DNA of 64,000 nucleotides, taken from the NCBI RefSeq assembly GCF_058153355.1, contig NZ_JBLWLY010000002.1; one strand, given 5' to 3'. The translations under genes were made by a program, and so were the position numbers. The number at the start of each line of letters is the position of its first letter. Position 1 is the first letter of the stretch. Of the stretch, positions 1 through 48,948 are shown piece by piece. This DNA is from a plasmid. The notes below the pieces were generated by a model. That model had not been told where the DNA came from, ran no database searches, and saw only the letters and a program-made list of their open reading frames with translations.

Positions 1-2
1 AG

Positions 3-383
3 AATGTAAGTAATGCACTGGCTATGATACGAATGACTGAGTCATATCATTTGGTTCTTTATCTTCTGAGAACTATTGAGAAAGAAAAGGAGGTAAGAAT
101 AAAGAGTCTGACAGAGCATTATGGTGTGTCGGAGGCTTATTTTAGATCTTTATGTAGAAAAGCTTTAGGGGCAAAAGTCAAAGAACAACTGAACACTTGG
201 CGGTTAGTAAATGGTTTATTAGATGTATTTTTGCACAATCAAACAATCACTTCTGCTGCCATGAATAATGGGTATGCATCAACATCCCATTTCTCAAATG
301 AGATAAAAACACGATTAGGCTTTTCTGCAAGAGAATTATCGAATATTACTTTTTTAGTGAAAAAAATAAATGAAAAAATTTAA
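3..383 (+). CDS. mxiE: AraC-family T3SS transcriptional activator MxiE, C-terminal part; ORF runs off the 5' end of the window
   Basis: No in-frame stop between position 3 and the ATG at 24; C-terminal HTH-like region; lies directly upstream of the secretin gene as in mxi-spa. Confidence 0.75.
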   Translation, partial: NVSNALAMIRMTESYHLVLYLLRTIEKEKEVRIKSLTEHYGVSEAYFRSLCRKALGAKVKEQLNTWRLVNGLLDVFLHNQTITSAAMNNGYASTSHFSNEIKTRLGFSARELSNITFLVKKINEKI

Positions 384-2070: not shown

Positions 2071-2088
2071 CTATAAAGTAGGTGATGT

Positions 2089-3156: not shown

Positions 3157-3162
3157 CAGGAG

Positions 3163-5229: not shown

Positions 5230-5241
5230 TGAGGTTTAAAT

Positions 5242-5643
5242 ATGAGTAACATTAATTTAGTTCAATTAGTTAGAGATAGTCTTTTCACGATTGGTTGTCC
5301 TCCATCAATTATTACAGATTTAGACAGCCATTCAGCGATTACCATTTCGTTGGATAGTATGCCTGCTATTAACATAGCTCTTGTCAATGAGCAGGTTATG
5401 TTATGGGCTAATTTTGATGCACCAAGTGATGTAAAACTTCAGTCATCTGCTTATAACATATTAAATTTAATGTTAATGAACTTTAATTATAGCATTAATG
5501 AGCTGGTAGAACTTCATCGTTCTGATGAGTATTTACAGTTAAGAGTTGTTATTAAAGATGACTACGTTCACGATGGGATTGTTTTTGCAGAGATTCTGCA
5601 TGAGTTTTATCAGAGGATGGAAATCTTAAATGAGGTCTTATAA
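5242..5643 (+). CDS. spa15: T3SS class I chaperone (Spa15/InvB family)
   Basis: 133 aa acidic protein between sctV and sctN, the arrangement specific to mxi-spa. Confidence 0.8.
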
Positions 5644-5646
5644 TCA

Positions 5647-6939
5647 ATGAGCTATACAAAATTGCTCACTCAATTATCTTTTCCTAATAAAATCTCGGGG
5701 CCAATCTTGGAAACAAGTCTTAGCGATGTTTCGATTGGTGAGATTTGTAACATTCAGGCTGGAATTGAAAGTAATGAAATTGTTGCAAGAGCTCAGGTTG
5801 TAGGATTTCATGATGAAAAAACGATATTAAGCTTGATTGGAAATTCTCGTGGGCTTTCACGGCAAACGTTGATTAAGCCCACTGCCCAGTTTCTTCATAC
5901 GCAAGTCGGCCGAGGATTATTGGGAGCAGTAGTCAATCCTTTAGGGGAGGTTACTGATAAGTTTGCTGTTACGGATAACAGTGAAATCCTTTATCGACCT
6001 GTAGATAATGCTCCTCCGCTATATAGTGAAAGGGCTGCAATTGAGAAGCCTTTTTTAACAGGTGTTAAGGTTATTGATTCTTTACTCACGTGTGGTGAAG
6101 GACAGCGAATGGGGATTTTTGCGTCAGCTGGTTGTGGCAAAACTTTTCTCATGAATATGCTCATTGAACATAGTGGTGCTGATATATATGTTATTGGGTT
6201 AATTGGTGAGCGAGGTCGAGAGGTTACAGAAACGGTTGATTATTTGAAAAACTCTGAGAAAAAAAGCAGGTGTGTTTTAGTATATGCAACTTCGGATTAC
6301 TCTTCGGTTGATCGTTGTAATGCTGCATATATAGCCACTGCTATAGCCGAATTTTTTAGGACTGAAGGACATAAAGTAGCGCTTTTTATTGATTCATTAA
6401 CAAGGTATGCCAGAGCATTACGTGATGTGGCCTTAGCCGCTGGAGAATCACCTGCTAGAAGAGGCTATCCGGTTTCGGTTTTTGATAGCTTACCCAGACT
6501 TCTTGAAAGGCCAGGAAAGTTAAAGGCAGGTGGCTCTATTACTGCATTTTATACTGTTCTTTTGGAGGATGATGATTTTGCTGATCCATTGGCTGAAGAG
6601 GTAAGATCCATTTTAGATGGACATATATATTTGAGCAGAAATCTAGCCCAAAAAGGACAATTTCCTGCAATTGATTCCTTAAAAAGTATAAGCAGAGTAT
6701 TTACACAGGTTGTTGATGAAAAACATCGTATTATGGCCGCTGCATTTCGGGAGCTACTTTCTGAAATAGAAGAGCTAAGGACAATTATTGACTTTGGTGA
6801 ATACAAACCGGGGGAGAATGCCTCTCAGGATAAAATCTACAACAAAATATCTGTTGTTGAGAGTTTTCTGAAGCAAGATTATCGACTCGGTTTTACTTAT
6901 GAGCAGACAATGGAGCTTATTGGTGAAACAATTAGATAA
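5647..6939 (+). CDS. spa47: T3SS ATPase (SctN; Spa47/InvC)
   Basis: 430 aa; Walker A GCGKT; F1/FliI-like ATPase core. Confidence 0.92.
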   Translation: MSYTKLLTQLSFPNKISGPILETSLSDVSIGEICNIQAGIESNEIVARAQVVGFHDEKTILSLIGNSRGLSRQTLIKPTAQFLHTQVGRGLLGAVVNPLGEVTDKFAVTDNSEILYRPVDNAPPLYSERAAIEKPFLTGVKVIDSLLTCGEGQRMGIFASAGCGKTFLMNMLIEHSGADIYVIGLIGERGREVTETVDYLKNSEKKSRCVLVYATSDYSSVDRCNAAYIATAIAEFFRTEGHKVALFIDSLTRYARALRDVALAAGESPARRGYPVSVFDSLPRLLERPGKLKAGGSITAFYTVLLEDDDFADPLAEEVRSILDGHIYLSRNLAQKGQFPAIDSLKSISRVFTQVVDEKHRIMAAAFRELLSEIEELRTIIDFGEYKPGENASQDKIYNKISVVESFLKQDYRLGFTYEQTMELIGETIR

Positions 6940-7019
6940 GGTTTTAAAAATCAAAGATAAATATCAACGGTCTGTTAAACTAATTGAAGCACACATATTA
7001 ACACTAAAAAAAAAACTCT

Positions 7020-7370
7020 TTGTATCGAGATGTGGAGGCATTAGATAAAAGGATTATATACTTCCTGCAGCTGGAGAATGACTTGGAACCTGTAGGCGCT
7101 CAGAGTGTTAGTCAGCTTTTCAATACAAGACGTAAGATCGCTATAGTAAAAAAGCATATTATCCAATATCAGTCTGAACGAATTCTTCTAAATGGAAGAA
7201 TTGAAGAAATTCAAAAAGATATTGATGAGGCAAATGCTTCTAAAAGAAAACTGCTTCATAAAGAGAGTAAAATATGTAAACGGATTGGCTTGATTAAAAG
7301 AAATAACTTTGCCAAACAGTTGATACTTGATGAGTTATCACAAGAGGATATGAAGTATGGCATTAGATAA
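7020..7370 (+). CDS. spa13: T3SS stalk protein (SctO; Spa13/InvI)
   Basis: About 116 aa, coiled-coil-like, immediately downstream of the ATPase gene; start codon uncertain. Confidence 0.7.
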
Positions 7371-8235
7371 TATAAACTTAAATTTTAGTAGTGACAAACA
7401 GATAGAAAAATGTGAGAAACTATCTTCAATAGATAATATTGATAGTCTCGTTTTGAAGAAGAAGAGGAAGGTTGAAATTCCTGAGTACTCTTTAATTGCA
7501 TCTAACTATTTTACTATTGATAAGCACTTTGAACATAAGCATGATAAAGGAGAAATTTATAGTGGCATTAAAAATGCGTTCGAACTTAGAAACGAACGAG
7601 CGACATATTCTGATATTCCAGAATCAATGGTCATTAAAGAAAATATTTTGATACCAGAGCAAGATATCAAAGCAAGGGAAAAAATAAATATCGGCGATAT
7701 GAGGGGGATCTTTTCATATAATGAGAGTGGAAATGCAGACAAGAACTTCGAAAGAAGTCATACTTCTTCTGCAAACCCTGATAATCTGCTAGAACCTGAT
7801 AATAGAAATGGTCAAATTGGTTTAAAAAATCATAGCTTATCTATTGATAAGAATATTGCTGACATCATTTCTTTGCTAAATGGAAGTGTTCCTAAGTCAT
7901 TTGATCTGCCTGTAATGAAAAAAAATACTTCAGACATAACCCCATCCATGTCATTGCAAGAAAAATCAATAGTTGAAAATGATAAAAATGTTTATCAAAA
8001 AAATAGTGAAATGACTTACCACTTTAAACAGTGGGGGGCTGGACATTCTGTTAGTATTTCAGTGGAGTCTGGTTCTTTTGTTCTAAAACCGTCAGATCAA
8101 TTTGTAGGAAATAAACTTGACTTAATTTTGAAACAAGATGCTGAGGGTAATTACAGATTTGATAGCAGTCAACATAATAAGGGGAATAAAAATAATAGTA
8201 CAGGATATAATGAACAGAGTGAAGAAGAATGCTAA
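7357..8235 (+). CDS. spa32: T3SS needle-length regulator (SctP; Spa32/InvJ)
   Basis: 292 aa, poorly conserved, in the SctP position; overlaps neighbouring genes as in the spa operon. Confidence 0.7.
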
Positions 8236-9110
8236 GACTTAAACATTTTGACGCTAACGAAAAATTACAGATTTTATATGCCAAGCAACTCTGCGAGCGT
8301 TTTGCGATTCAGACATTCAAAAATAAATTTACAGGCAGTGAAAGTTTAGTCACTCTTACTTCCGTGTGTGGTGATTGGGTGATTCGTATTGATACATTAT
8401 CTTTTTTGAAAAAAAAATACGAGGTATTTTCAGGATTTTCTACACAAGAATCTTTACTGCATTTATCAAAATGTGTCTTTATAGAGTCGTCATCTGTATT
8501 TTCGATTCCAGAACTGTCGGATAAGATTACTTTCCGGATCACGAATGAAATCCAGTTTGCAACTACTGGGAGTCATTTATGCTGTTTTTCCTCTTCTTTA
8601 GGTATTATTTATCTTGACAAGATGCCTGTATTACGTAATCAAGTTTCTCTTGATTTATTGCATCATCTTTTAGAGTTTTGCTTAGGTTCATCTAATGTGA
8701 GGCTGGCTACTTTAAAAAGAATTCGCACTGGTGATATAATCATAGTTCAGAAACTTTATAATTTATTATTGTGTAATCAAGTTATTATTGGGGATTATAT
8801 TGTGAATGATAATAATGAGGCAAAAATTAATCTGTCAGAAAGTAATGGTGAGTCAGATCACACAGAAGTTTCTTTGGCATTATTCAATTATGATGATATC
8901 AATGTAAAAGTGGACTTTATCCTTTTAGAAAAAAAGATGACAATCAATGAACTAAAAATGTATGTAGAAAACGAATTATTCAAGTTTCCCGATGACATAG
9001 TTAAACATGTAAATATTAAAGTAAATGGTTCTTTGGTTGGGCATGGGGAACTTGTTTCTATTGAGGATGGTTATGGTATCGAGATTAGTTCTTGGATGGT
9101 AAAGGAGTAA
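8229..9110 (+). CDS. spa33: T3SS cytoplasmic sorting platform protein (SctQ; Spa33/SpaO)
   Basis: 293 aa; SpoA-like C-terminal region; position between SctP and SctR. Confidence 0.8.
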
Positions 9111-9114
9111 TCTC

Positions 9115-9765
9115 ATGCTGAGTGATATGTCCCTCATCGCTACACTTTCTTTTTTTACGCTATTACCATTTTTAGTTGCTGCTGGTACTTGTTATATAAA
9201 GTTTTCTATTGTTTTTGTAATGGTACGAAATGCACTTGGTTTGCAGCAGGTTCCATCAAATATGACTCTCAATGGTATTGCATTGATTATGGCTTTGTTC
9301 GTGATGAAACCCATTATTGAAGCTGGTTATGAAAATTATCTAAATGGCCCGCAAAAATTTGATACAATATCAGATATTGTCCGTTTTTCTGATTCTGGCT
9401 TGATTGAATACAAGCAATACTTGAAAAAGCATACAGATCTTGAGTTGGCACGTTTTTTCCAAAGGTCTGAAGAAGAAAATGCTGATTTAAAGAGTGCAGA
9501 GAATAATGATTATTCATTGTTTTCCCTCTTGCCTGCATATGCGCTAAGTGAAATTAAAGATGCGTTCAAAATAGGTTTTTATTTATATTTGCCATTTATT
9601 GTTGTTGATCTTGTTATTTCAAGCATTTTACTTGCACTTGGTATGATGATGATGAGTCCAATCACAATATCAGTACCAATAAAACTTGTATTATTTGTTG
9701 CGCTTGATGGGTGGGGGATCCTGTCTAAGGCCTTGATTGAACAATATATCAATGTTCCTGCTTAG
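9115..9765 (+). CDS. spa24: T3SS export apparatus protein (SctR; Spa24/SpaP)
   Basis: 216 aa polytopic membrane protein; FliP family size and position. Confidence 0.9.
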
Positions 9766-9779
9766 ATGATGGAGGTAAT

Positions 9780-10040
9780 GTGTCTGATATAGTTTATATG
9801 GGTAATAAGGCTCTTTATTTAATCCTTATCTTTTCCTTATGGCCAGTAGGTATAGCTACGGTTATTGGATTAACTATTGGTTTATTACAGACAGTGACTC
9901 AACTCCAAGAGCAGACACTTCCTTTTGGTATAAAGCTTATAGGTGTCTCAATATCTTTGCTACTTCTTTCTGGATGGTATGGTGAGGTTTTATTGTCTTT
10001 TTGTCATGAAATAATGTTTTTAATTAAGAGTGGGGTTTGA
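9780..10040 (+). CDS. spa9: T3SS export apparatus protein (SctS; Spa9/SpaQ)
   Basis: 86 aa, two hydrophobic helices; FliQ family. Confidence 0.88.
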
Positions 10041-10810
10041 TGGACATTTCAAGCTGGTTCGAAAGTATTCATGTGTTTTTAATACTCCTGAACGGCGTTT
10101 TTTTTAGATTGGCTCCATTATTTTTCTTTCTTCCATTTTTAAATAACGGTATAATTTCTCCATCTATTAGAATACCTGTGATTTTTCTTGTTGCATCAGG
10201 ATTAATTACTTCTGGTAAGGTAGATATAGGTTCTTCTGTTTTTGAACATGTTTATTTCCTTATGTTCAAGGAAATAATTGTTGGCCTCCTTCTCTCTTTT
10301 TGCTTGTCTCTTCCCTTTTGGATATTTCATGCTGTTGGTAGCATTATTGACAACCAGCGTGGGGCAACGCTTAGTAGTTCAATTGATCCTGCCAATGGTG
10401 TTGATACGTCTGAGTTGGCAAAATTTTTCAATCTTTTTTCTGCAGTTGTATTTCTATACAGTGGTGGTATGGTCTTTATTTTAGAATCCATACAATTGTC
10501 TTATAATATATGCCCGTTATTTTCTCAATGTTCTTTCCGTGTCTCAAATATCTTAACATTTCTGACTTTATTGGCAAGTCAGGCTGTTATTTTAGCCAGT
10601 CCTGTTATGATAGTATTGTTACTATCAGAAGTATTACTTGGTGTATTATCGAGATTTGCTCCGCAGATGAATGCTTTTTCCGTATCATTAACTATTAAAA
10701 GTTTACTTGCAATATTTATTATTTTCATCTGCTCTTCTACTATTTACTTTTCTAAAGTTCAATTTTTCCTCGGTGAACATAAATTTTTCACAAATCTATT
10801 TGTTAGATAA
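10037..10810 (+). CDS. spa29: T3SS export apparatus protein (SctT; Spa29/SpaR)
   Basis: 257 aa polytopic membrane protein; FliR family; start overlaps spa9 stop. Confidence 0.88.
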
Positions 10811-10816
10811 AATATT

Positions 10817-11845
10817 ATGGCAAATAAAACAGAAAAGCCGACACCTAAAAAACTAAAGGATGCCGCAAAAAAAGGACAGTCATTTAAATTTAAGGATTTA
10901 ACGACTGTTGTTATTATTCTGGTAGGGACATTTACTATAATATCATTCTTTTCCTTAAGTGATGTAATGCTCTTATACAGATATGTAATAATTAATGACT
11001 TCGAAATTAATGAGGGTAAATACTTTTTTGCAGTGGTTATTGTCTTTTTTAAGATAATTGGCTTCCCACTTTTTTTCTGTGTTCTTTCGGCTGTGTTGCC
11101 AACATTGGTTCAAACAAAGTTTGTTCTTGCGACTAAAGCTATCAAGATTGATTTTTCAGTATTAAACCCTGTTAAAGGGTTAAAAAAAATATTTAGTATA
11201 AAGACAATAAAAGAATTTTTCAAAAGCATTCTGCTTCTTATTATTCTAGCATTAACAACCTATTTCTTTTGGATTAATGACCGAAAAATAATTTTTTCTC
11301 AGGTGTTTTCTAGTGTTGATGGCTTATATCTTATTTGGGGGGGGCTGTTTAAGGATATAATATTATTTTTCTTGGCATTTTCTATTTTTGTTATTATTCT
11401 TGACTTTGTGATTGAGTTCATTTTATACATGAAAGATATGATGATGGATAAACAGGAGATAAAAAGAGAATATATAGAGCAAGAGGGACACTTTGAGACA
11501 AAGTCGAGAAGGCGTGAGTTGCATATCGAGATTCTTTCAGAGCAGACTAAATCTGATATACGTAATTCAAAATTAGTGGTAATGAACCCGACTCATATTG
11601 CAATTGGTATTTATTTTAATCCAGAAATAGCGCCTGCACCTTTTATTTCTCTCATTGAAACTAACCAGTGTGCCTTGGCTGTCAGAAAATATGCAAATGA
11701 AGTTGGTATACCAACTGTGCGTGATGTGAAATTAGCTAGAAAACTATATAAAACACATACAAAATATAGTTTTGTTGATTTTGAACACTTGGATGAAGTC
11801 CTACGTCTTATTGTTTGGCTTGAGCAGGTTGAAAACACTCATTAA
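10817..11845 (+). CDS. spa40: T3SS autoprotease/substrate-specificity switch (SctU; Spa40/SpaS)
   Basis: 342 aa; N-terminal membrane domain; NPTH autocleavage motif (..VVMNPTHIAIG..). Confidence 0.9.
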   Translation: MANKTEKPTPKKLKDAAKKGQSFKFKDLTTVVIILVGTFTIISFFSLSDVMLLYRYVIINDFEINEGKYFFAVVIVFFKIIGFPLFFCVLSAVLPTLVQTKFVLATKAIKIDFSVLNPVKGLKKIFSIKTIKEFFKSILLLIILALTTYFFWINDRKIIFSQVFSSVDGLYLIWGGLFKDIILFFLAFSIFVIILDFVIEFILYMKDMMMDKQEIKREYIEQEGHFETKSRRRELHIEILSEQTKSDIRNSKLVVMNPTHIAIGIYFNPEIAPAPFISLIETNQCALAVRKYANEVGIPTVRDVKLARKLYKTHTKYSFVDFEHLDEVLRLIVWLEQVENTH

Positions 11846-11866
11846 TAAGTAAAGGAGATGTGTTAT

Positions 11867-12100
11867 ATGGGAGTTAATTTCTGTAATAAAATAGGTATTG
11901 ATCAGTCTGAATTTGAAATAGAATCTTCCATCATTAACTCCATTGCTAATGAGGTATTGAACCCAATATCTTTCCTTAGCAACAAGGATATAATAAATGT
12001 TTTACTCAGAAAGATTTCATCTGAATGTGACCTGGTTAGAAAAGACATTTATCGTTGTGCTCTGGAGTTGGTCGTTGAAAAAACACCTGATGATTTATAA
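11867..12100 (+). CDS. Small hypothetical protein downstream of spa40
   Basis: ORF with AAGGAG Shine-Dalgarno about 8 nt upstream of the second ATG; AT-rich like the T3SS locus; no recognisable motif. Confidence 0.4.
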   Translation: MGVNFCNKIGIDQSEFEIESSIINSIANEVLNPISFLSNKDIINVLLRKISSECDLVRKDIYRCALELVVEKTPDDL

Positions 12101-12216
12101 TCATTCATAATAACTCTTTTGCTGATATAAATATTGTTGTTGAAGATATTTATGTAGTCACAGGATCAATTGTAGAAAATTGTTATGTTTTTGTTAGGAA
12201 CTGCACTAAATAATAT

Positions 12217-12486
12217 ATGATAAGACAGCAAAAACGACTGACCATAATCCTTCTTTTATTAGGAGTTGATAAGAGAGACTATTCATCCTGTAATGTTATA
12301 ACTCTGTTATATAGTATTCGCGATTATGCAAAGTCTGTAAATGATTATGAGATACTAACCGAGAGTAATCGTTTATTATCTCATTGCATTTCAGATAGTA
12401 ACGGAGCTTTCTTTAAAAGTAGTAAATACGTTCCCCTTAAGTACTTACGTAAAAGGAGAATAGCACGAAAGATACCAAATGATTAG
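12217..12486 (+). CDS. Hypothetical protein
   Basis: 89-aa ORF in AT-rich DNA; no recognisable domain. Confidence 0.3.
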   Translation: MIRQQKRLTIILLLLGVDKRDYSSCNVITLLYSIRDYAKSVNDYEILTESNRLLSHCISDSNGAFFKSSKYVPLKYLRKRRIARKIPND

Positions 12487-12609
12487 CACTTTGCTAGTAA
12501 GCTTGCTGGCAAACTATATTGACCGTTGGGTTTGTTTTGAGACTGTAATTTAAATTGTGTAATTGCCTGTTTTTGATATGTTTACTCCAACAACGGAGAC
12601 AGGTAAATT

Positions 12610-13147
12610 ATGGACGAAAAGAAGCTTAAAGCCCTTGCGGCTGAACTGGCTAAAGGCCTCAAAACTGAGGCCGACCTCAATCAGTTTTCCCGTATGCTGA
12701 CGAAATTAACTGTCGAAACGGCGCTTAATGCGGAACTAACTGACCATCTCGGGCATGAAAAAAATGCGCCAGAACAGGCTCAAACACCCGCAATGGCTAC
12801 TCGTCAAAAACGGTATTGTGCGATGACGGCGAGACAGAACTGAAGACGCCACGTGACCGTGAAAACACCTTCGAACCGCAACTGATTAAGAAGCATCAAA
12901 CGCGCATCACCCAGATGGACAACCAGATTTGTCCCCATATGCCAAAGGTATAACTACGCGGGAAATCGTCTCGACCTTCAAAGAGATGTACGATGCTGAC
13001 GTGTCGCCCACGCTGATATCTAAAGTCACCGATGCGGTTAAAGAACAGGTCTCTGAATGGCAAAACCGACCGTTGGGTGCGCTGTATCCCATTGTTTATC
13101 GACTGTATCGTGGTGAAAGTTCGTCACAATGGCAGCGTAATTAACAA
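12610..13147 (+). pseudogene. IS256-family (Mutator-type) transposase, 5' remnant with frameshift, cut by the IS21 insertion
   Basis: Two ORF pieces (..LTKLTVETALNAELTDHLGHEKN.. and ..TTREIVSTFKEMYDADVSPTLISKVTDAVKEQVSEWQNRPL..) resembling the N-terminal region of IS256-family transposases; ends at the IS21 terminus at 13148. Confidence 0.6.
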
Positions 13148-13248
13148 TGTTAGCGCCAGTGATATAAGACGGTAATTCACCATTTGGATTGTCCGCTCCA
13201 CCCAACATGTTGTTTCCTTAAGGTTCTCACACCAGAAAGGACATCAAC

Positions 13249-15218
<1,970 letters not shown>

Positions 15219-15278
15219 CGAAAGTATCTTAGCGGGCATGAAAATGGCAAATAACGGTTAAAAATCGTGGCGTTGACA

Positions 15279-15560
15279 CTGCTGACGAGGGCTTATCCCT
15301 GTCCGCCGCTGACACCACGTATACCAGCCGCTGTGGGCCACCCGGAGCACGCGGCACATTGCCTTGATGCTGAACCCAGCCTGATGTTTTTCAATAAAGA
15401 CATACTTCATTTCAGGCGCTTCGTAAAGTATGTCGCGGCCTTTTGGAGGATAGCCAGTTCCTCTGCCTGCTCCGCCAGTTGCCGCTTCAGGCGGGCATTT
15501 TCAGCGGCCAGTTCACTTTCACGCTCAGACGAGGTCATCTGTTGCTGCAGTTTGCTGCGC
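15279..15560 (-). pseudogene. IS3 fragment (orfA 3' end plus orfB 5' start), bounded by the IS21 and IS66 insertions
   Basis: Minus-strand translation ..[50 protein letters not shown] followed by [25 protein letters not shown].. Confidence 0.7.
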
Positions 15561-15679
15561 GTAAGCGTCTTATCAGGACCGTCTGGCAAATTCCCGATGC
15601 TTTGGACAAAGTATCCACCACTAAATTAATAGTGGGTGATAAAAATGTCAGATATACAAAAAAATGCCTCTCCGGGAAG

Positions 15680-17105
15680 TAATGCCAGTCAGTTAAGCAA
15701 CTGACTGGCTCTTTTTCGGGGCTGTGGGGTATTTCCAGGGCCTCTCCTTTACCACTCTCGGGAAGGCCCTTTCCCTTCTTGTCGGTAATTTCACAAGTTG
15801 TCCCATACTTGCAAGATCGCGCATCAGCTCCGGTATACGTCCCGGTGAAGCGCCCTGCAATGTCATCAGCATTCTCATCACCATTCCGCATGATTCTGAG
15901 AAACTCAGTTGATTCGGCCAGTAACCTTTCAGATGTTCCGCCATTTTAATCATCTGATATCTCACCAGATTATAAGCCAGTAAGACACCCCACAGCTCTT
16001 GCTCCACAAGCTCCGGCTTTTTACTTCTCAGCGTCAGCCTGCTCAGTTGCATCGTCTGTTTTATCTCCCTGTATCCCAGTTCGATTTCCCAGCGATGACT
16101 GTACAGATCCGCCATTTCTCCTCCGGGGAAGCGCATGGCGTCCGTCATCGACGTCAGCAGATGGCAGACTTTTCCTTTGCGCGTCACGGTCAGCAGGCGG
16201 GCTGTCACTTCATTTCCCAGTCCCGGCCACTTTTTTCGTGCCTGCGGGCTGGTTTTCAGCTTCACCAGATGATCGCCTTTACCCAGTTTTCTGATCTCTT
16301 CATATTGCGCTCCCTTTCTGAGAGGTATCATCCAGTGGCGGTGTTCTCCCGCCAGGCTCCAGGCATTTAACAGTCCCAGTGAGTAATAACCTTTATCCAT
16401 TAACGTCAGAGTGTTATCGCCGGTTTGTTCTATAAGTTGCTCAGCAAGCTCATTTTCGCTGTTCTTCATCGTGCCGAAGGCTGCAGCCGTCAGCAGATGG
16501 CTGGTCAGTTCCATCTGGCAGACCATTTTGACCTGCGGGTAGAGCGCCGGGTTCCCGGCATGTGTCTGGCGGGGGAAGGCTGCATCGTTCTCTGGTGTAT
16601 CCGGTGTGCGCCAGAACACACCATCGATGGCCAGCAGGGTCAGGCCGCACCAGTGCGGATGCGGCGTGGCGTTATGCCAGAGCTGCGCTGTTTTCGTGAA
16701 CACGCGGCGGACAGCCTCACTTCCCAGGCGCTGGCGGGCCTGAATAACGGCACTGGGGGCAACGAAGGGGCGATTGCCCGGCAGCATGATGTCCAGGCGA
16801 TTCACAATCTGGTGAAGAGGTTCTTTACGCTCAAGCGCCATGCCAACAATACACCAGACCATCATTTCGAGGGGAAGACGGCGCTTGCGTAGCGTTACAG
16901 TACCTGATTCGGCAAGGCAACGAGAGATGAGTTCGGGGTCGAGGTAATCCCCCAGAGAAGTCAGTGGGTTACGCAGAGAATCGTAACGGGATACCAGATC
17001 AAGAGCCTGTCCAATGTGCATAAAAAAATCCGGAAACAAGTGAGCGTTTCCGGATTCTTACACAGCCACTGGATCGGTCAACTGATCCTTAACTGATCGG
17101 CATTA
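15680..17105 (-). mobile_element. IS4, 1426 bp, flanked by a 12-bp direct duplication CTCTCCGGGAAG (15668..15679 and 17106..17117)
   Basis: Terminal inverted repeats TAATGCC(A/G)..CAGTTAAG at both ends; perfect 12-bp TSD; length equals canonical IS4. Confidence 0.9.
15693..17039 (-). CDS. IS4 transposase
   Basis: 448-aa ORF (from the first ATG) matching the IS4 transposase as I recall it. Confidence 0.9.
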
Positions 17106-17498
17106 CTCTCCGGGAAGGCCTAAAGGGTGCCTGAATTATCCTCCTGAATTCAAACAACGACTCATAGAAGCATCATTCCAGCCAGGTGTTTCAATTTCCA
17201 GACTGGCCCTGGACAATGGTATTAATGCCAATCTGTTGTTCAAATGGCGTCAGAAATGGCGGCAGGGGAAGATAAAATTGCCATCATCAGAATCAGGCAG
17301 AGAATCTCAGTTAATTCCTGTCACTATTGATGCCCAACTCCCAACTGCTCCGGCTAATGAGCCACTGACCGCAAGACCGTCAGTAACACCGGAAATACAC
17401 AGCATCTCCTGTGAGATTACGTTCAGAAACGGCACCCTTCGGTTGAACGGGGCAGTGAATGAAAATCTGCTGTCCTTGCTTATACAGGAGCTGAGACG

Positions 17499-17846
17499 GT
17501 GATATCTCTCCCTGCAGGTTCGCGTATCTGGCTGGTTGCAGGTATCACCGATATGCGAAATGGCTTTAACGGCCTGGCCTCAAAAGTTCAGAACGTCCTG
17601 AAGGATGACCCGTTCTCCGGACACCTGTTCATCTTCCGCGGACGCCGGGGTGACCAGATAAAAGTGCTGTGGGCTGACAGCGACGGACTGTGCCTCTTCA
17701 CCAGACGCCTGGAACGGGGCCGCTTCGTCTGGCCGGTCACCCGTGACGGCAAGGTGCACCTTACTCCGGCCCAGTTATCCATGCTTCTTGAGGGCATCGA
17801 CTGGAAACACCCGAAACGAACGGAACGCGCTGGCATCCGCATATAA
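17499..17846 (+). CDS. tnpB: IS66-family TnpB (orf2)
   Basis: 115 aa; near-identical to the TnpB of the intact copy at 22228..22575. Confidence 0.85.
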   Translation: MISLPAGSRIWLVAGITDMRNGFNGLASKVQNVLKDDPFSGHLFIFRGRRGDQIKVLWADSDGLCLFTRRLERGRFVWPVTRDGKVHLTPAQLSMLLEGIDWKHPKRTERAGIRI

Positions 17847-17865
17847 CCCGTTGTAAAGTGAGGAT

Positions 17866-19254
17866 ATGGACACCTCACTTGCTCATGAGAATGCCCGCCT
17901 GCGGGCACTGTTGCAGACGCAACAGGACACCATCCGCCAGATGGCGAAATACAACCGCCTGCTCTCACAGCGGGTGGCGGCTTATGCTTCCGAAATCAAC
18001 CGGCTGAAGGCGCTGGTTGCAAAACTGCAGCGCATGCAGTTCGGTAAAAGCTCAGAAAAACTTCGTGCAAAAACCGAACGGCAGATACAGGAAGCACAGG
18101 AGCGAATCAGCGCTCTTCAGGAAGAAATGGCGGAAACGCTGGGTGAGCAATATGACCCGGTACTGCCATCTCCCCTGCGCCAGTCTTCAGCCCGTAAACC
18201 GTTACCTGCCTCACTTCCCCGTGAAACCCGGGTCATCCGTCCGGAAGAGGAATGCTGCCCGGCCTGTGGTGGCGAACTCAGTTCTCTGGGATGTGATGTG
18301 TCAGAGCAACTGGAGCTTATCAGCAGCGCCTTTAAGGTTATCGAAACACAACGTCCGAAACTGGCCTGTTGCCGGTGCGACCATATCGTGCAGGCTCCGG
18401 TGCCTTCAAAACCCATTGCACGCAGTTATGCCGGAGCGGGGCTTCTGGCCCATGTTGTCGCTGGAAAATATGCAGACCATCTGCCGTTATACCGCCAGTC
18501 AGAAATATACCGTCGTCAGGGCGTGGAGCTGAGCCGTGCCACACTGGGGCGCTGGACAGGTGCTGTTGCTGAACTGCTGGAACCGCTGTATGACATCCTG
18601 CGCCAGTATGTGCTGATGCCCGGTAAAGTCCATGCCGATGATATCCCCGTTCCGGTCCAGGAGCCGGGCAGCGGTAAAACAAGGACTGCCCGGCTGTGGG
18701 TCTACGTTCGTGATGACCGTAACGCCGGTTCGGAAATGCCTCCGGCGGTCTGGTTCGCGTACAGCCCGGACCGGAAAGGTATCCATCCACAGAATCATCT
18801 GGCCGGTTACAGCGGAGTGCTTCAGGCCGATGCTTACGGTGGTTACCGGGCGTTGTACGAATCCGGCAGAATAACGGAAGCCGCATGTATGGCTCATGCC
18901 CGGAGAAAAATCCACGATGTGCATGCAAGAGTGCCCACCGACATCACCACGGAAGCCCTGCAGCGTATCGGTGAACTGTATGCCATCGAGGCAGAGGTCC
19001 GGGGCTGTTCAGCAGAACAGCGTCTGGCGGCAAGAAAAGCCAGAGCCGCGCCACTGATGCAGTCACTGTATGACTGGATACAGCAACAGATGAAAACACT
19101 GTCGCGTCACTCGGACACGGCAAAAGCGTTCGCATACCTGCTGAAACAGTGGGATGCACTGAACGTGTACTGCAGTAATGGCTGGGTGGAAATCGACAAC
19201 AACATCGCAGAGAACGCCTTACGGGGAGTGGCCGTAGGCCGGAAAAACTGGCTC
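17866..19254 (+). pseudogene. tnpC: IS66-family transposase TnpC, 5' exon, interrupted after ..GRKNWL by the group II intron
   Basis: Identical to residues 1 to about 463 of the intact 523-aa TnpC at 20637..22208; continuation found at 23557..23738. Confidence 0.8.
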
Positions 19255-19766
19255 TGTGTGTCACGAAGGAGTACTTATGGCAACAATGTGAAAATTGCAG
19301 CATAAGTTATCCATGCTCTGAGGTGGGTGGAGGTGGGCCCTCCGGTCAGGGTTTACAGGAGCACTGACCAAACGACCCGGTGCTGCTTCATTCTAAGGAA
19401 TGAGGTGGTGAGCGACTCGGGAAAAGGCAGAGATCTACTGTCACGTGGGGTTCGGGAAGCTGAACGAAAGTAAACTGTCCGATGAAGCATCGAAATCTTA
19501 GATGATGTCAAAATGGGGCCGTACAGCCGTCCCCTGATAAGCGCAGAAGACACCTGCTTACTGACTGCGCGGCATCCGGTGTGAAGGCAGCAGGATCCCG
19601 GGCCAGACCATCTCAGGGAACGTGAGAACCTGTTTCCGGCACGTATCGGGAAACAGGGGCGGACCCATTCGTAGTAGTGATGAAAGATCTGTAATGGGTC
19701 TGGAGCGAAGGGATGGGGATCACATTCATTGCAGAAGACACAACCCAAAAGGGGATGACGTAACTG

Positions 19767-20606
19767 ATGCAACGAAAATCATTTGAAATACCAAAAGCAC
19801 TGGTCTGGGCATCATATCTGGATGTGCGTCGCAACAAGGGAGCCCCCGGATGCGACGGGCAGACTTTGAAAATGTTCGACCAGCAACGTGATGGCAATCT
19901 ATACAAGATCTGGAACCGGCTATGTTCGGGAACATGGTTTCCGCCACCAGTGCTGGAAAAACGGATCCCGAAGTCGAATGGCAAGGAACGCATTCTGGGG
20001 ATCCCAACAGTATCCGATCGAATTGCTCAGGGAGCGATAAAACTTTTCATGGAAGAAAAGCTTGACCCGATTTTCCATGCTGATTCATATGGTTACCGAC
20101 CAGGCAAATCAGCTCATGACGCTCTGAAACAATGTGCCATCCGGTGCTGGCGTTATAGCTGGATACTGGAAGTGGACATCAGTGCGTTTTTCGACCATGT
20201 GAGACATGATCTGGTGCTCAAAGCTCTGGAACACCACGGGATGCCTAAATGGGTCATCCTGTACTGTCGACGCTGGATGGAAGCGCCAATGCAGAGTTGT
20301 GAAAATGGAGAATTAATAACCCGAACACGAGGCACTCCGCAGGGCGGGGTCATTAGTCCACTACTTGCTAACTTGTTCCTTCACTATGCATTTGATTTGT
20401 GGATGGAAAGAGAATATCGGGGGGTACCGTTTGAGAGGTACGCTGACGATATTGTAGTACATTGTTCACGAATGAGTGATGCAACAAGGCTGAAGAACAG
20501 GTTATCGGAGCGCTTCTCGGAAGTCGGGCTGGTCCTGAATGCAGGGAAAACGAATATCGCCTACATTGACACGTTTAAAAGGAGAAACGTCGCAACGAGT
20601 TTCACC
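19767..20606 (+). pseudogene. Group II intron reverse transcriptase/maturase, interrupted by IS66 copy 2; C-terminal part resumes at 23083..23476
   Basis: RT motifs (..PQGGVISPLLANLFL.., ..YADD..) identical to the intact 410-aa copies at 36768..38000 and 60598..61830 up to ..VATSFT. Confidence 0.8.
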
Positions 20607-20636
20607 GTAAGCGGCTCGCCAGAACCGTATTGATAT

Positions 20637-22208
20637 TTACTGAGAGCTCAGATCAACTTTCCAGGGCAACAGATCGCGTACCCGGTTTGCCGGCCAGTCC
20701 TGGATATGTTCAATGACGTAACGCAGCCACTTTTCTGGCTCCACATTGTTCAGACGGCATGTGCCGATCAGCGAGTACAACACCGCAGCATGTTCACCAC
20801 CGCTGTCAGAACCCGCGAAGAGCCAGTTTTTCCGGCCTACGGCCACTCCCCGTAAGGCGTTCTCTGCGATGTTGTTGTCGATTTCCACCCAGCCATTACT
20901 GCAGTACACGTTCAGTGCATCCCACTGTTTCAGCAGGTATGCGAACGCTTTTGCCGTGTCCGAGTGACGCGACAGTGTTTTCATCTGTTGCTGTATCCAG
21001 TCATACAGTGACTGCATCAGTGGCGCGGCTCTGGCTTTTCTTGCCGCCAGACGCTGTTCTGCTGAACAGCCCCGGACCTCTGCCTCGATGGCATACAGTT
21101 CACCGATACGCTGCAGGGCTTCCGTGGTGATGTCGGTGGGCACTCTTGCATGCACATCGTGGATTTTTCTCCGGGCATGAGCCATACATGCGGCTTCCGT
21201 TATTCTGCCGGATTCGTACAACGCCCGGTAACCACCGTAAGCATCGGCCTGAAGCACTCCGCTGTAACCGGCCAGATGATTCTGTGGATGGATACCTTTC
21301 CGGTCCGGGCTGTACGCGAACCAGACCGCCGGAGGCATTTCCGAACCGGCGTTACGGTCATCACGAACGTAGACCCACAGCCGGGCAGTCCTTGTTTTAC
21401 CGCTGCCCGGCTCCTGGACCGGAACGGGGATATCATCGGCATGGACTTTACCGGGCATCAGCACATACTGGCGCAGGATGTCATACAGCGGTTCCAGCAG
21501 TTCAGCAACAGCACCTGTCCAGCGCCCCAGTGTGGCACGGCTCAGCTCCACGCCCTGACGACGGTATATTTCTGACTGGCGGTATAACGGCAGATGGTCT
21601 GCATATTTTCCAGCGACAACATGGGCCAGAAGCCCCGCTCCGGCATAACTGCGTGCAATGGGTTTTGAAGGCACCGGAGCCTGCACGATATGGTCGCACC
21701 GGCAACAGGCCAGTTTCGGACGTTGTGTTTCGATAACCTTAAAGGCGCTGCTGATAAGCTCCAGTTGCTCTGACACATCACATCCCAGAGAACTGAGTTC
21801 GCCACCACAGGCCGGGCAGCATTCCTCTTCCGGACGGATGACCCGGGTTTCACGGGGAAGTGAGGCAGGTAACGGTTTACGGGCTGAAGACTGGCGCAGG
21901 GGAGATGGCAGTACCGGGTCATATTGCTCACCCAGCGTTTCCGCCATTTCTTCCTGAAGAGCGCTGATTCGCTCCTGTGCTTCCTGTATCTGCCGTTCGG
22001 TTTTTGCACGAAGTTTTTCTGAGCTTTTACCGAACTGCATGCGCTGCAGTTTTGCAACCAGCGCCTTCAGCCGGTTGATTTCGGAAGCATAAGCCGCCAC
22101 CCGCTGTGAGAGCAGGCGGTTGTATTTCGCCATCTGGCGGATGGTGTCCTGTTGCGTCTGCAACAGTGCCCGCAGGCGGGCATTCTCATGAGCAAGTGAG
22201 GTGTCCAT
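20637..22208 (-). CDS. tnpC: IS66-family transposase TnpC (intact, 523 aa)
   Basis: Full-length ORF; zinc-finger-like CxxC pairs and DDE-type C-terminal region typical of IS66 TnpC. Confidence 0.9.
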
Positions 22209-22227
22209 ATCCTCACTTTACAACGGG

Positions 22228-22575
22228 TTATATGCGGATGCCAGCGCGTTCCGTTCGTTTCGGGTGTTTCCAGTCGATGCCCTCAAGAAGCATGGATAAC
22301 TGGGCCGGAGTAAGGTGCACCTTGCCGTCACGGGTGACCGGCCAGACGAAGCGGCCCCGTTCCAGGCGTCTGGTGAAGAGGCACAGTCCGTCGCTGTCAG
22401 CCCACAGCACTTTTATCTGGTCACCCCGGCGTCCGCGGAAGATGAACAGGTGTCCGGAGAACGGGTCATCCTTCAGGACGTTCTGAACTTTTGAGGCCAG
22501 GCCGTTAAAGCCATTTCGCATATCGGTGATACCTGCAACCAGCCAGATACGCGAACCTGCAGGGAGAGATATCAC
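22228..22575 (-). CDS. tnpB: IS66-family TnpB
   Basis: 115 aa; conserved IS66 orf2 arrangement. Confidence 0.88.
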   Translation of the reverse strand: MISLPAGSRIWLVAGITDMRNGFNGLASKVQNVLKDDPFSGHLFIFRGRRGDQIKVLWADSDGLCLFTRRLERGRFVWPVTRDGKVHLTPAQLSMLLEGIDWKHPKRTERAGIRI

Positions 22576-23000
22576 CGTCTCAGCTCCTGTATAAGCAAGG
22601 ACAGCAGATTTTCATTCACTGCCCCGTTCAACCGAAGGGTGCCGTTTCTGAACGTAATCTCACAGGAGATGCTGTGTATTTCCGGTGTTACTGACGGTCT
22701 TGCGGTCAGTGGCTCATTAGCCGGAGCAGTTGGGAGTTGGGCATCAATAGTGACAGGAATTAACTGAGATTCTCTGCCTGATTCTGATGATGGCAATTTT
22801 ATCTTCCCCTGCCGCCATTTCTGACGCCATTTGAACAACAGATTGGCATTAATACCATTGTCCAGGGCCAGTCTGGAAATTGAAACACCTGGCTGGAATG
22901 ATGCTTCTATGAGTCGTTGTTTGAATTCAGGAGGATAATTCAGGCACCCTTTAGGCCTTCCCGGAGAGGCATTTTTTTGTATATCTGACATTTTTATCAC
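22572..23000 (-). CDS. tnpA: IS66-family TnpA (orf1)
   Basis: 142 aa; HTH-containing N-terminus; overlaps tnpB start. Confidence 0.85.
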   Translation of the reverse strand: MIKMSDIQKNASPGRPKGCLNYPPEFKQRLIEASFQPGVSISRLALDNGINANLLFKWRQKWRQGKIKLPSSESGRESQLIPVTIDAQLPTAPANEPLTARPSVTPEIHSISCEITFRNGTLRLNGAVNENLLSLLIQELRR

Positions 23001-23768
23001 CCACTATTAATTTAGTGGTGGATACTTTGTCCAAAGCATCGGGAATTTGCCAGACGGTCCTGATAAGACGCTTACGTTTCACCTTTCTCGGATATGACTT
23101 CAAAGTGCGTACGCTGAAGAATTTCAAAGGCGAACTGTACCGAAAATGCATGCCGGGTGCGTCAAATGCAGCAATGCGCAAAATAACAGAAACAATCAAG
23201 AAGTGGCGTATACATCGCTCAACAGCTGAGAGTTTGCTGGATTTTGCGAGGCGCTACAATGCGATAGTGAGAGGCTGGATCGAGTACTACGGAAAGTTCT
23301 GGTCCAGAAATTTCAACTATCGACTGTGGAGTGCAATGCAGTCACGTCTGCTCAAGTGGATGCAGTCTAAATACAGACTTTCGAACCGGAAGGCTCAGCG
23401 AAAGCTGACGCTGGTAAGGAAGGAGTATCCGAAGCTATTTGTTCACTGGTATTTACTACGTGCATCAAATGAGTGATCAAGAGCCGTATGACGCGAGAGT
23501 GTCACGTACGGTTCCGTGAGCAGCCGGGGAGTGAAATTCTCTCCGGCTGACTCGACTCGCAGGTTCCGACAGCGGTGGCGAACATGCGGCGGTGTTGTAC
23601 TCGCTGATCGGCACATGCCGTCTGAACAATGTGGGGCCAGAAAAATGGCTGCGTTACGTCATTGAGCATATCCAGGACTGGCCGGCAAACCGGGTACGCG
23701 ATCTGTTGCCCTGGAAAGTTGATCTGAGCTCTCAGTAAATATCAATACGGTTCTGGCGAGCCGCTTAC

Positions 23769-24109
23769 GCACTAACTGTAGTCTGAGTAGATAAAGACGG
23801 AGTAAGAGCAGCCACCGGTTCTTTCGGCTCATCCGGCGTTATCTCCACAGGTAATAATTCAACGCCAGTGTCAGAAGAGGTTGTTACCGGAAGACGCCGC
23901 GATATGCGCCCTTCGTTCTGCCAGAGCCTGAGCCATTTGAACAGCAGATTGGCGTTAATGCCATTTTCAAGAGCAAGTTTTGAGATGGATACCCCGGATT
24001 CACAGGAGGCAGAAACGAGCTGCTGTTTAAATTCGGGAGGATCATTAGGGCAGCCTTTTCGCCTGCCGGGAGTCACATTTTTCTGCATATCTGACACTTT
24101 GGTTCCCAC
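23769..24109 (-). pseudogene. IS66-family TnpA (type B) fragment, truncated by the right end of IS66 copy 1
   Basis: Translation ..[69 protein letters not shown].. parallels the tnpA at 57452..57871. Confidence 0.6.
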
Positions 24110-24298
24110 TACTTATTTGGTGGACACCACTTTGTCTAATTCGTCAGATTCTGACCAGACGGTTCAGGCTGTACGCTTCCCCATGTGATTTGCCTCGCCA
24201 CTTCACCGGGCTCAGGACCCCGTAGGATCTTCACCGAAAAAAATGCATCACCAGTTGCTTTATTATTTGTTTTAGGTAGACCTGTTACTAATTTATAC

Positions 24299-24556
24299 CT
24301 ACTCTGACCAGGTCTGGATAAGAAAGGCACACCTGCACATTTCTACTTGGAAATGTTTTCTTTTACCATTTTTCTCAAAAATTTCAACATCCAATATTCC
24401 TCGTACAGAACTACTCAAGTCCTGAATAGAAAAAGTTCCAGCTGGTACAGTAGGGTCATATATTACTCGACCTTGTTGAGATACAACAACACGTGCATTA
24501 GTTTCTGCAATACCAGTAATCTGAGGCGCATAACCACGAATATTTGGCGGTAGCAT
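24299..24556 (-). pseudogene. Fimbrial usher (FimD/PapC family) internal fragment
   Basis: 85-aa ORF ..RGYAPQITGIAETNARVVVSQQGRVIYDPTVPAGTFSIQDLSSSVRGILDVEIFEKNGKRKHFQV.. resembles the conserved usher middle region; no complete gene present. Confidence 0.45.
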
Positions 24557-24665
24557 TCGTTCATCGCATTTCTAATGCAATTCCTGTGTAACGCCAAGCA
24601 ACAGCGCATTCTGGCGCATGATCCGGTAAACACGTTTGGCATTGATCGCAGGCATACCATCATGT

Positions 24666-24698
24666 GCACAAAAACCCACCGAGCTTTTACACGGTGGG
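24666..24698 (-). terminator. Putative rho-independent terminator downstream of icsA
   Basis: Minus-strand hairpin CCCACCGTGTAAAAGCTCGGTGGG followed by TTTTTGTG, about 45 nt after the icsA stop. Confidence 0.5.
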
Positions 24699-24742
24699 TC
24701 CCAGAGAAATGCAGGACATCAACACGCCCTGCATTTTTATTA

Positions 24743-36687: not shown

Positions 36688-38511
36688 GTCGAGTCAGCCG
36701 GAGAGAATTTCACTCCCCGGCTGCTCACGGAACCGTACGTGACACTCTCGCGTCATACGGCTCTTGATCACTCATTTGATGCACGTAGTAAATACCAGTG
36801 AACAAATAGCTTCGGATACTCCTTCCTTACCAGCGTCAGCTTTCGCTGAGCCTTCCGGTTCGAAAGTCTGTATTTAGACTGCATCCACTTGAGCAGACGT
36901 GACTGCATTGCACTCCACAGTCGATAGTTGAAATTTCTGGACCAGAACTTTCCGTAGTACTCGATCCAGCCTCTCACTATCGCATTGTAGCGCCTCGCAA
37001 AATCCAGCAAACTCTCAGCTGTTGAGCGATGTATACGCCACTTCTTGATTGTTTCTGTTATTTTGCGCATTGCTGCATTTGACGCACCCGGCATGCATTT
37101 TCGGTACAGTTCGCCTTTGAAATTCTTCAGCGTACGCACTTTGAAGTCATATCCGAGAAAGGTGAAACTCGTTGCGACGTTTCTCCTTTTAAACGTGTCA
37201 ATGTAGGCGATATTCGTTTTCCCTGCATTCAGGACCAGCCCGACTTCCGAGAAGCGCTCCGATAACCTGTTCTTCAGCCTTGTTGCATCACTCATTCGTG
37301 AACAATGTACTACAATATCGTCAGCGTACCTCTCAAACGGTACCCCCCGATATTCTCTTTCCATCCACAAATCAAATGCATAGTGAAGGAACAAGTTAGC
37401 AAGTAGTGGACTAATGACCCCGCCCTGCGGAGTGCCTCGTGTTCGGGTTATTAATTCTCCATTTTCACAACTCTGCATTGGCGCTTCCATCCAGCGTCGA
37501 CAGTACAGGATGACCCATTTAGGCATCCCGTGGTGTTCCAGAGCTTTGAGCACCAGATCATGTCTCACATGGTCGAAAAACGCACTGATGTCCACTTCCA
37601 GTATCCAGCTATAACGCCAGCACCGGATGGCACATTGTTTCAGAGCGTCATGAGCTGATTTGCCTGGTCGGTAACCATATGAATCAGCATGGAAAATCGG
37701 GTCAAGCTTTTCTTCCATGAAAAGTTTTATCGCTCCCTGAGCAATTCGATCGGATACTGTTGGGATCCCCAGAATGCGTTCCTTGCCATTCGACTTCGGG
37801 ATCCGTTTTTCCAGCACTGGTGGCGGAAACCATGTTCCCGAACATAGCCGGTTCCAGATCTTGTATAGATTGCCATCACGTTGCTGGTCGAACATTTTCA
37901 AAGTCTGCCCGTCGCATCCGGGGGCTCCCTTGTTGCGACGCACATCCAGATATGATGCCCAGACCAGTGCTTTTGGTATTTCAAATGATTTTCGTTGCAT
38001 CAGTTACGTCATCCCCTTTTGGGTTGTGTCTTCTGCAATGAATGTGATCCCCATCCCTTCGCTCCAGACCCATTACAGATCTTTCATCACTACTACGAAT
38101 GGGTCCGCCCCTGTTTCCCGATACGTGCCGGAAACAGGTTCTCACGTTCCCTGAGATGGTCTGGCCCGGGATCCTGCTGCCTTCACACCGGATGCCGCGC
38201 AGTCAGTAAGCAGGTGTCTTCTGCGCTTATCAGGGGACGGCTGTACGGCCCCATTTTGACATCATCTAAGATTTCGATGCTTCATCGGACAGTTTACTTT
38301 CGTTCAGCTTCCCGAACCCCACGTGACAGTAGATCTCTGCCTTTTCCCGAGTCGCTCACCACCTCATTCCTTAGAATGAAGCAGCACCGGGTCGTTTGGT
38401 CAGTGCTCCTGTAAACCCTGACCGGAGGGCCCACCTCCACCCACCTCAGAGCATGGATAACTTATGCTGCAATTTTCACATTGTTGCCATAAGTACTCCT
38501 TCGTGACACAC
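36688..38511 (-). mobile_element. Group II intron copy 2 (1824 bp) inserted in IS66 tnpC
   Basis: Boundaries GTGTG...CTCGAC on the minus strand; flanking exon sequence identical to the other copies. Confidence 0.85.
36768..38000 (-). CDS. Group II intron-encoded reverse transcriptase/maturase (intact, 410 aa)
   Basis: RT domains including PQGGVISPLLANLFL and YADD; no obvious endonuclease domain at this size. Confidence 0.9.
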   Translation of the reverse strand: MQRKSFEIPKALVWASYLDVRRNKGAPGCDGQTLKMFDQQRDGNLYKIWNRLCSGTWFPPPVLEKRIPKSNGKERILGIPTVSDRIAQGAIKLFMEEKLDPIFHADSYGYRPGKSAHDALKQCAIRCWRYSWILEVDISAFFDHVRHDLVLKALEHHGMPKWVILYCRRWMEAPMQSCENGELITRTRGTPQGGVISPLLANLFLHYAFDLWMEREYRGVPFERYADDIVVHCSRMSDATRLKNRLSERFSEVGLVLNAGKTNIAYIDTFKRRNVATSFTFLGYDFKVRTLKNFKGELYRKCMPGASNAAMRKITETIKKWRIHRSTAESLLDFARRYNAIVRGWIEYYGKFWSRNFNYRLWSAMQSRLLKWMQSKYRLSNRKAQRKLTLVRKEYPKLFVHWYLLRASNE

Positions 38512-39943: not shown

Positions 39944-40028
39944 ACTCAGGTGTCCGTCTGTGTCAGATGGGCGTCTAAGTTACCAATTCTTGTCTAATGG
40001 CTACATACGGCAGTTGGTTTACGCTTAC

Positions 40029-45756: not shown

Positions 45757-46029
45757 TTTATCCTTGCCCCGCTGAATGAGGAAACGCTGTTCCGGGGGAT
45801 TATGCTGAACGTCTTCCGTTCACGGTACTGCTGGACGATGTGGCTGGGTGCGCTGATAACGTCGTTGTTGTTCGTCGCCGCGCACAGCCAGTATCAGAAC
45901 CTGCTGACCCTGGCAGAACTGTTCCTGGTGGGGGTGATTACATCAGCGGCCAGGATCAGAAGTGGTGGCCTGCTGCTGCCGGTATTGCTGCATATGGAAG
46001 CAACCGCGCTGGGTTTACTGTTTGGTTGA
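45757..46029 (+). pseudogene. CPBP-family (CAAX/Abi-like) membrane protease, 3' fragment
   Basis: ..EETLFRGIMLNVFRSRY..AAHSQY.. motifs; gene begins abruptly at the miniature element boundary. Confidence 0.55.

Positions 46030-46978: not shown

Positions 46979-48948
<1,970 letters not shown>

Follow-up and report, generated by a model that had tools for sequence, protein, structure and literature searches.

How did a complete insertion sequence (IS) come to lie inside a mobile intron that is itself housed in a sister of that insertion sequence, and what does the nest record about the plasmid that carries it? We address this question for a stretch of 64,000 nucleotides (the window) from a plasmid contig (NZ_JBLWLY010000002.1, RefSeq assembly GCF_058153355.1), in which an IS66-family element interrupts the open reading frame (ORF) of one copy of the group II intron E.c.I3, and this intron lies in the transposase gene tnpC of a second IS66. 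The window belongs to an invasion plasmid (pINV) of Shigella/enteroinvasive Escherichia coli (EIEC). For positions 1-12000, plasmids of S. dysenteriae and EIEC provide matches of 99.3-99.4% in their mxi-spa type III secretion region; positions 24162-36000 correspond to the icsA-virA region, with matches of up to 99.5%, and a pile of mobile elements lies between the two. Very probably, the inner IS66 transposed as DNA into E.c.I3 on this Shigella/EIEC plasmid, and the IS66 that now houses the intron is a hybrid associated with an inversion. Gene calls were scored by NCBIfam models with their curated cut-offs, intron RNA by Rfam, and protein domains by Pfam; junctions were searched in PLSDB (72,556 plasmids, with >100 pINV records among them) and in 5,426 complete E. 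coli genomes.

The inner IS66 occupies positions 20607-23075 on the minus strand and is complete at 2469 bp, with independent copies having the same ends. It opens with GTAAGCG at 20607 and closes with CGCTTAC at 23075, and its termini form imperfect inverted repeats in which the first 7 bases are identical and ∼19 of the 26 terminal bases match. The target-site duplication GTTTCACC is found on the left at 20599-20606 (intron positions 1344-1351) and on the right at 23076-23083. The first-pass annotation had recognized the perfect 8-bp direct repeat and placed the left border correctly; its right border at 23074/23075 has to be moved so that the element ends at 23075, which changes the length from 2468 to 2469 bp and the right repeat from 23075-23082 to 23076-23083. 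Its description of a complete IS66 with three intact genes inside the reverse transcriptase (RT) ORF stands, with all ORFs exceeding the IS66 model cut-offs. The DDE transposase gene tnpC (20637-22208, minus strand) encodes 523 residues and scores 479 bits with NF033517 (cut-off 180); a protein identical to the inner TnpC carries precomputed Pfam matches to LZ_Tnp_IS66, zf-IS66, DDE_Tnp_IS66, and DDE_Tnp_IS66_C. The accessory gene tnpB (22228-22575, minus strand) encodes 115 residues (NF033819, 127.8 bits, cut-off 50), and the accessory gene tnpA (22572-23000, minus strand; NF047595, 88.8 bits, cut-off 74) encodes 142 residues from a GTG codon (annotated elsewhere as 139 residues) and overlaps tnpB by 4 bp. 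The lengths of all three genes equal those in the E. albertii copies.

Two of the independent copies fix the element ends. The E. albertii plasmid pESA134_1 carries an IS66 of 95.8% identity that agrees with it in both termini and is bordered on each side by a separate 8-bp duplication, CCTTATTC; an IS66 in GCA_047897835.1 is identical at 2469 of 2469 positions and has CACCGGAC on each flank. The GTAAGCG termini are common to these two copies and the inner IS66. Because the ends are thus fixed independently of the window, and a perfect match of 8 flanking bases would arise by chance in ∼1 of 65,536 cases (by arithmetic), the flanks carry a real transposition signature. In agreement, excision of 20607-23083 joins 19256-20606 to 23084-23556 and yields an intron of 1824 bp. 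Comparison with the two uninterrupted copies in the window, a check that had been proposed with the first-pass annotation, finds the restored intron identical at 1824 of 1824 positions to both (60087-61910, plus strand, and 36688-38511, minus strand). By the logic of the sequence, the insertion itself is secure.

The disrupted intron retains its ribozyme. Its 5′ part (19256-20606, plus strand) starts with GTGTG and contains the D1-D4 match at 19329-19445; its 3′ part (23084-23556, plus strand) comprises the 130 C-terminal ORF codons, followed by domains V-VI with the RF00029 match at 23479-23556. The Rfam scores are 57.1 bits for RF00029 (domain V-VI; threshold 40) and 91.9 bits for RF01999 (group-II-D1D4-2; threshold 36), the boundaries GTGTG...AC fit the ribozyme ends GUGYG...AY, and the insertion has left the flanking ribozyme domains untouched. 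The intact copies at 36688-38511 and 60087-61910 encode an RT/maturase of 410 residues (ORFs at 36768-38000 and 60598-61830, respectively), which scores 393.9 bits with TIGR04416 (cut-off 300) and contains RVT_1 (residues 67-285) and GIIM (residues 311-385) and no endonuclease domain. In the interrupted copy, the inner IS66 lies in the domain IV ORF, antisense to the intron, and interrupts the reading frame after codon 280 (of 410). The truncated intron ORF (19767-20633, plus strand) consists of 280 RT codons and 8 codons contributed by the IS end; its 288-residue product keeps nearly the whole RT domain and loses the entire maturase domain. The intron can indeed no longer encode its maturase, as had been noted. 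Its RNA would not necessarily be unspliceable, however: the interrupted intron may still splice, because the two identical intact copies could supply the maturase in trans.

E.c.I3 is known to home specifically into IS679, an IS66-family element (PMC3522654). The intron length of 1824 bp is that of E.c.I3-2b in E. coli 536 (NC_008253 4007952-4009775; Table S3, PMC3522654), to which the window intron is 99.3% identical over the 307-bp segment that was compared (NC_008253 4008425-4008731). The intron copies lie in tnpC in the sense orientation, their insertion point falling between positions 212 and 213 of the IS66 (numbered from its tnpC end), and the 5′ exon flank (-40 to -1) is identical in all three. 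The inner tnpC itself contains a free E.c.I3 homing site (20779-20858, minus strand; insertion point 20818/20819), whose positions -40 to +40 agree at every base with the exon sequences that border the copies at 36688-38511 and 60087-61910. An empty target is thus present beside two apparently functional introns.

The outer IS66 had been described as a second element with the intron in its tnpC and an IS4 in its tnpA, and both statements hold. Its left end (15561-15679, plus strand), which belongs to an insertion that we call copy A, is 100% identical to the inner copy, has TGCTGCGC on its left, and follows an IS3H fragment (15278-15560; annotated IS3H, IS3 family). An IS4 of 1426 bp (15680-17105, minus strand) then interrupts tnpA, with the 12-bp duplication CTCTCCGGGAAG at 15668-15679 and 17106-17117, that is, at element positions 108-119, just inside the gene. 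It has the ends TAATGCC...GGCATTA and scores 304 bits with NF033592 (cut-off 115); IS4 duplications range from 11 to 13 bp. At 17106-19255 (plus strand), the remainder of tnpA is succeeded by tnpB and by codons 1-463 of tnpC, which form the 5′ exon of the intron, and the 3′ exon with the right end of the outer element is located at 23557-23768 (plus strand), next to an ISEc8-like fragment (23769-24178). The composite at 15561-23768 amounts to 8208 bp, which is the sum of the outer IS66 (2469), IS4 (1426) and its duplication (12), the intron (1824), and the inner IS66 (2469) and its duplication (8). Having lost tnpA to IS4, the outer element would be dead in any case if this gene is required; tnpA is reportedly needed for IS679 transposition.

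The two halves of the outer element differ in origin. Over its 5′ parts (118 + 2150 bp) it agrees with the inner copy at 100%, whereas the last 212 bp (23557-23768) contain 7 mismatches, and these 212 bp therefore come from a different IS66 insertion, here called type B. The outermost ends carry no matching duplication: TGCTGCGC borders the left end and GCACTAAC the right. These mismatched flanks led us to the inversion. The true right end of copy A is found at 36476-36687 (minus strand), is identical to the inner copy at 212 of 212 positions, and is followed by TGCTGCGC and IS3H sequence (36257-36475). TGCTGCGC and IS3H sequence hence flank both 15561 and 36475, in opposite orientation and 21 kb apart. 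In the plasmid of S. flexneri FDAARGOS_535 the orthologous IS3H is uninterrupted: the equivalent of 36248-36475 is joined directly to that of 15560-15278 in reverse complement, and the 8 bp occur a single time; compared with this plasmid the block 23086-36475, which includes icsA and virA, is inverted relative to the spa genes. The IS66 ends at 36476 and 15561 are the two ends of a single insertion into IS3H that an inversion has separated, and the outer IS66 is a hybrid in which the 5′ part of copy A is joined to the final 212 bp of the type B copy. Recombination between inverted E.c.I3-bearing IS66 copies is the best explanation for this arrangement. The first-pass annotation thus saw the nesting correctly, but its single outer IS66 is such a hybrid and not one intact insertion. 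The hybrid and the inversion are the new point beyond that reading.

The crossover has consequences for the order of events. Perfect identity available for recombination extends over 532 bp upstream of the intron, the intron itself, and 4 bp downstream, with the intact intron at 36688-38511 as the inversion partner, and the insertion site of the inner IS66 falls within this interval. The window alone gives no answer as to whether the element entered copy A, copy B, or the post-inversion hybrid, because the crossover interval includes the site. A real insertion into the intron of the type B copy, beyond icsA, or one that predates the intron of copy A, with the inversion joining it to the IS4-bearing copy A afterwards, so that the three levels would not have been built up at this spot in the order that the nest suggests, is a serious possibility that we rate at somewhat below even. 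The IS may originally have lain to either side of the crossover, and the identity of the inner copy to copy A would fit a local hop that took place before copy A was disabled; on the other hand, a related assembly contains an identical intact copy at a third site, which is an equally good candidate donor, and nothing in the window separates these scenarios. The claim that the nesting gives the order of insertions therefore survives in part. It still holds locally that an intron copy was present, as DNA, in the tnpC of an IS66 when the inner IS entered. The nesting does not tell which IS66 hosted the intron at that time, and the IS4 insertion cannot be dated from it.

The type B copy has a history of its own. 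Its other end (40028/40029) has no matching duplication, which indicates that further rearrangements exist. At 38512-40028, the 544 bp on the 5′ exon side of the minus-strand intron are 99.4% like the inner IS66; the sequence then changes to another IS66 relative and reaches CGCTTAC at 40028, 1517 bp from the intron. This segment is a mosaic or a deleted element without a matching duplication.

With the insertion, its borders to the base, the identity of every part, the hybrid host, and the inversion established, we infer the following order of events. A functional IS66 with tnpA, tnpB, and a DDE-type tnpC transposed into a genomic E.c.I3 copy, its staggered cut giving rise to an 8-bp duplication as is typical of the family. 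It landed antisense in the domain IV ORF, after codon 280 of 410, and so split the RT from the maturase domain. The target intron occupies the usual E.c.I3 homing site in the tnpC gene of a sister IS66; this sister (copy A), whose tnpA is itself inactivated by IS4, had been inserted in IS3H. Two intron-bearing IS66 copies in inverted orientation would then have recombined through their homology, which inverted the icsA-virA segment and made the outer IS66 a hybrid.

Several points weigh against this account. The three introns and the two or more IS66 copies are repeats of 1.8-2.5 kb, so that the assignment of the inner IS66 to one host copy rests on the assembly, as do its placement in one of three identical introns and the orientation of the inverted segment. 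The chimeric ORF of 288 residues that spans the left junction has no exact match in other public assemblies. That the inner copy is still active would follow from its intact ORFs and its sequence identity to other copies. The same repeats could suggest that the assembly misjoined them and that no IS66 lies inside any intron copy. We consider such an artefact very unlikely. The region is indeed built of repeats (a 2150-nt perfect inverted repeat with a spacer of 1563 nt, and three identical introns), and the junction is absent from all database records searched. A complete IS that has both its terminal repeats, a perfect 8-bp duplication of unique intron sequence, and an intron that is restored exactly upon excision would, however, not result from a wrong repeat join, the IS ends match independent copies to the base, and the sum of 8208 bp closes. 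That the IS66 was instead carried as intron cargo and reached its site by retrohoming with protein supplied in trans is barely credible: the ribozyme domains and homing-site flanks are intact and two protein-coding copies are present, but the cargo of 2477 nt compares with a mobility limit of ∼1,000 nt, above which domain IV cargo makes introns drastically less mobile (PMC3898094), a pre-mRNA from the present site would have its 5′ exon paired with the antisense cargo over 2150 nt, and no second IS-bearing intron is found in the window, PLSDB, or the complete E. coli genomes.

Where did the transposed element come from? PLSDB has no record that spans the left or the right junction, or the IS3H/IS66 junction at the outer left end of copy A; the left junction is likewise missing from the complete E. 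coli genomes. Full-length relatives of the inner IS66 are rare, being found in four E. albertii plasmid records of PLSDB (95.7-95.8% identity), with none in the 5,426 complete E. coli genomes; the other matches, annotated as ISCro1 family, mostly share only the tnpB-tnpC part, at ∼97%. The exact TnpC is recorded on one other contig only, in GCA_047897835.1. There the element is located at 5016-7485 of ABXYKR010000031.1, downstream of a gene for a Peptidase_S6 autotransporter of 1363 residues and near traM/traJ. An exact look-up of IcsA returned only short-read contigs of 8 kb that end at about 23770, and these are uninformative about the nest because they end at the boundary of the IS66 repeat.

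At every base compared, the inner IS66 equals the split copy A. This 100% identity, together with junctions that are not found in PLSDB (and, for the left one, in E. coli genomes), bears out the earlier proposal that this type of IS66 was recently active. In its present state copy A cannot have been the donor, because it carries IS4 and the intron. The donor would be an earlier, still functional copy A or a different intact copy, for example that in GCA_047897835.1, which is a possible source if it comes from the same lineage. The locus thus shows a Shigella-type invasion plasmid carrying an IS66 variant that is lineage-specific and, it appears, active to this day. Insertion of an IS into E.c.I3 is, in itself, a sporadic, strain-specific event of a known kind.

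The nest also has structural consequences. The segment 17106-19255 is 100% complementary to 20819-22968, and the two form the perfect inverted repeat of 2150 nt, its spacer located at 19256-20818. The repeat could allow the spacer to flip, or could form a long RNA hairpin in a read-through transcript. As the primary structure, a flipped 1563-bp spacer between the 2150-nt arms was rejected, as the intron halves would then face opposite ways. The domain IV insert of 2477 nt and the complementarity of 2150 nt argue against efficient splicing and mobility of the interrupted intron. We regard as a long shot the idea that a transcript of the outer element, with 2150 nt of perfect self-complementarity between 5′ exon and intron cargo, could block splicing and, as a long antisense or double-stranded RNA, dampen active IS66 copies in trans, so that the locus would silence itself by accident, with the free homing site making natural retrohoming of this uncharacterised class D intron directly measurable. 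The intact and disrupted E.c.I3 copies and the empty homing site do make this one molecule a natural test case for intron mobility. The intron-bearing IS copies, acting as long repeats, would have driven the inversion of a segment with the virulence genes icsA and virA, and rearrangements of this kind were predicted by Leclercq and Cordaux (PMC3522654). Taken together, the locus holds real but ordinary nested mobile elements and no new kind of element or mechanism; its main value lies in annotation and in the history of the plasmid.

Additional repeats and remnants are present in the window. Two IS21-type elements of 2131 nt (13148-15278 and 46919-49049), both with istA/istB, are 100% identical, inverted, and 31.6 kb apart, and are a further pair that could mediate inversion. 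The second of them is flanked by direct repeats at 45883-46182 and 49050-49349 (98%). In FDAARGOS_535 (region 10522-14000), ushA is located between an IS66/intron remnant and icsA, and the corresponding interval of the window (23769-24161) contains only a 410-bp ISEc8-like end fragment, ushA being missing. The third intron copy, at 60087-61910 (plus strand), sits in an IS66 remnant (59941-62122) with ∼146 bp of the 5′ exon left; its 3′ exon is a third variant, with 6 mismatches to the inner and 9 to the outer element, and ISEc8-like sequence follows the remnant at 62144-63494.

How does the nest compare with known systems? The inner IS66 shares the tnpA-tnpB-tnpC gene order, the DDE-type TnpC, the GTAAGCG termini, and the 8-bp duplication with the IS679/ISCro1 group of the IS66 family (Han et al. 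2001, J Bacteriol 183:4296, cited in PMC6778807). Counted from the tnpC end, its positions 1-1968 (tnpB-tnpC) are ∼97% identical to elements annotated as ISCro1 family, whereas the ∼500 bp at the tnpA end differ. The intron agrees with E.c.I3, a bacterial class D intron, in its length of 1824 bp, in the type of homing site, and in a protein of 410 residues without endonuclease domain, all of which apply to the window copies (Leclercq and Cordaux 2012, PMC3522654; Dai and Zimmerly 2002, as cited there).

A precedent is the plasmid of S. dysenteriae ATCC 12039 (NZ_CP026830.1), in which an ISEc8-type IS66 (5224-7664) lies in the same E.c.I3 ORF. That element measures 2441 bp, has the duplication AATGCAGC, and is inserted 89 bp downstream of the site used here; it is, however, a different IS66 species (∼70-77% identical), in the opposite orientation and on another plasmid. 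Its junction was found in that one record only, among those searched. The 5′ end of the intron in NZ_CP026830.1 is also abnormally joined to IS66 sequence. In E. coli E24377A, the plasmid copy E.c.I3-tr1 is likewise broken into separated pieces (Table S3, PMC3522654), but these are diverged (96-98%) and incomplete, whereas the intron of the window is restored exactly when the IS is removed.

Engineered introns with domain IV cargo (targetrons, PMC3898094) likewise carry foreign DNA in the domain IV loop and may use a protein provided in trans. The natural cargo here, at 2.5 kb, is antisense, complementary to the intron's own 5′ exon, and far above the tolerated targetron size. In the 2012 survey, Shigella virulence plasmids with E.c.I3 copies were scored as having fragments only, and no free IS679 site was reported in genomes with full-length E.c.I3 (PMC3522654). 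The window differs from this picture on both counts, as it combines two intact E.c.I3 copies, one copy disrupted by an IS, and one free homing site.

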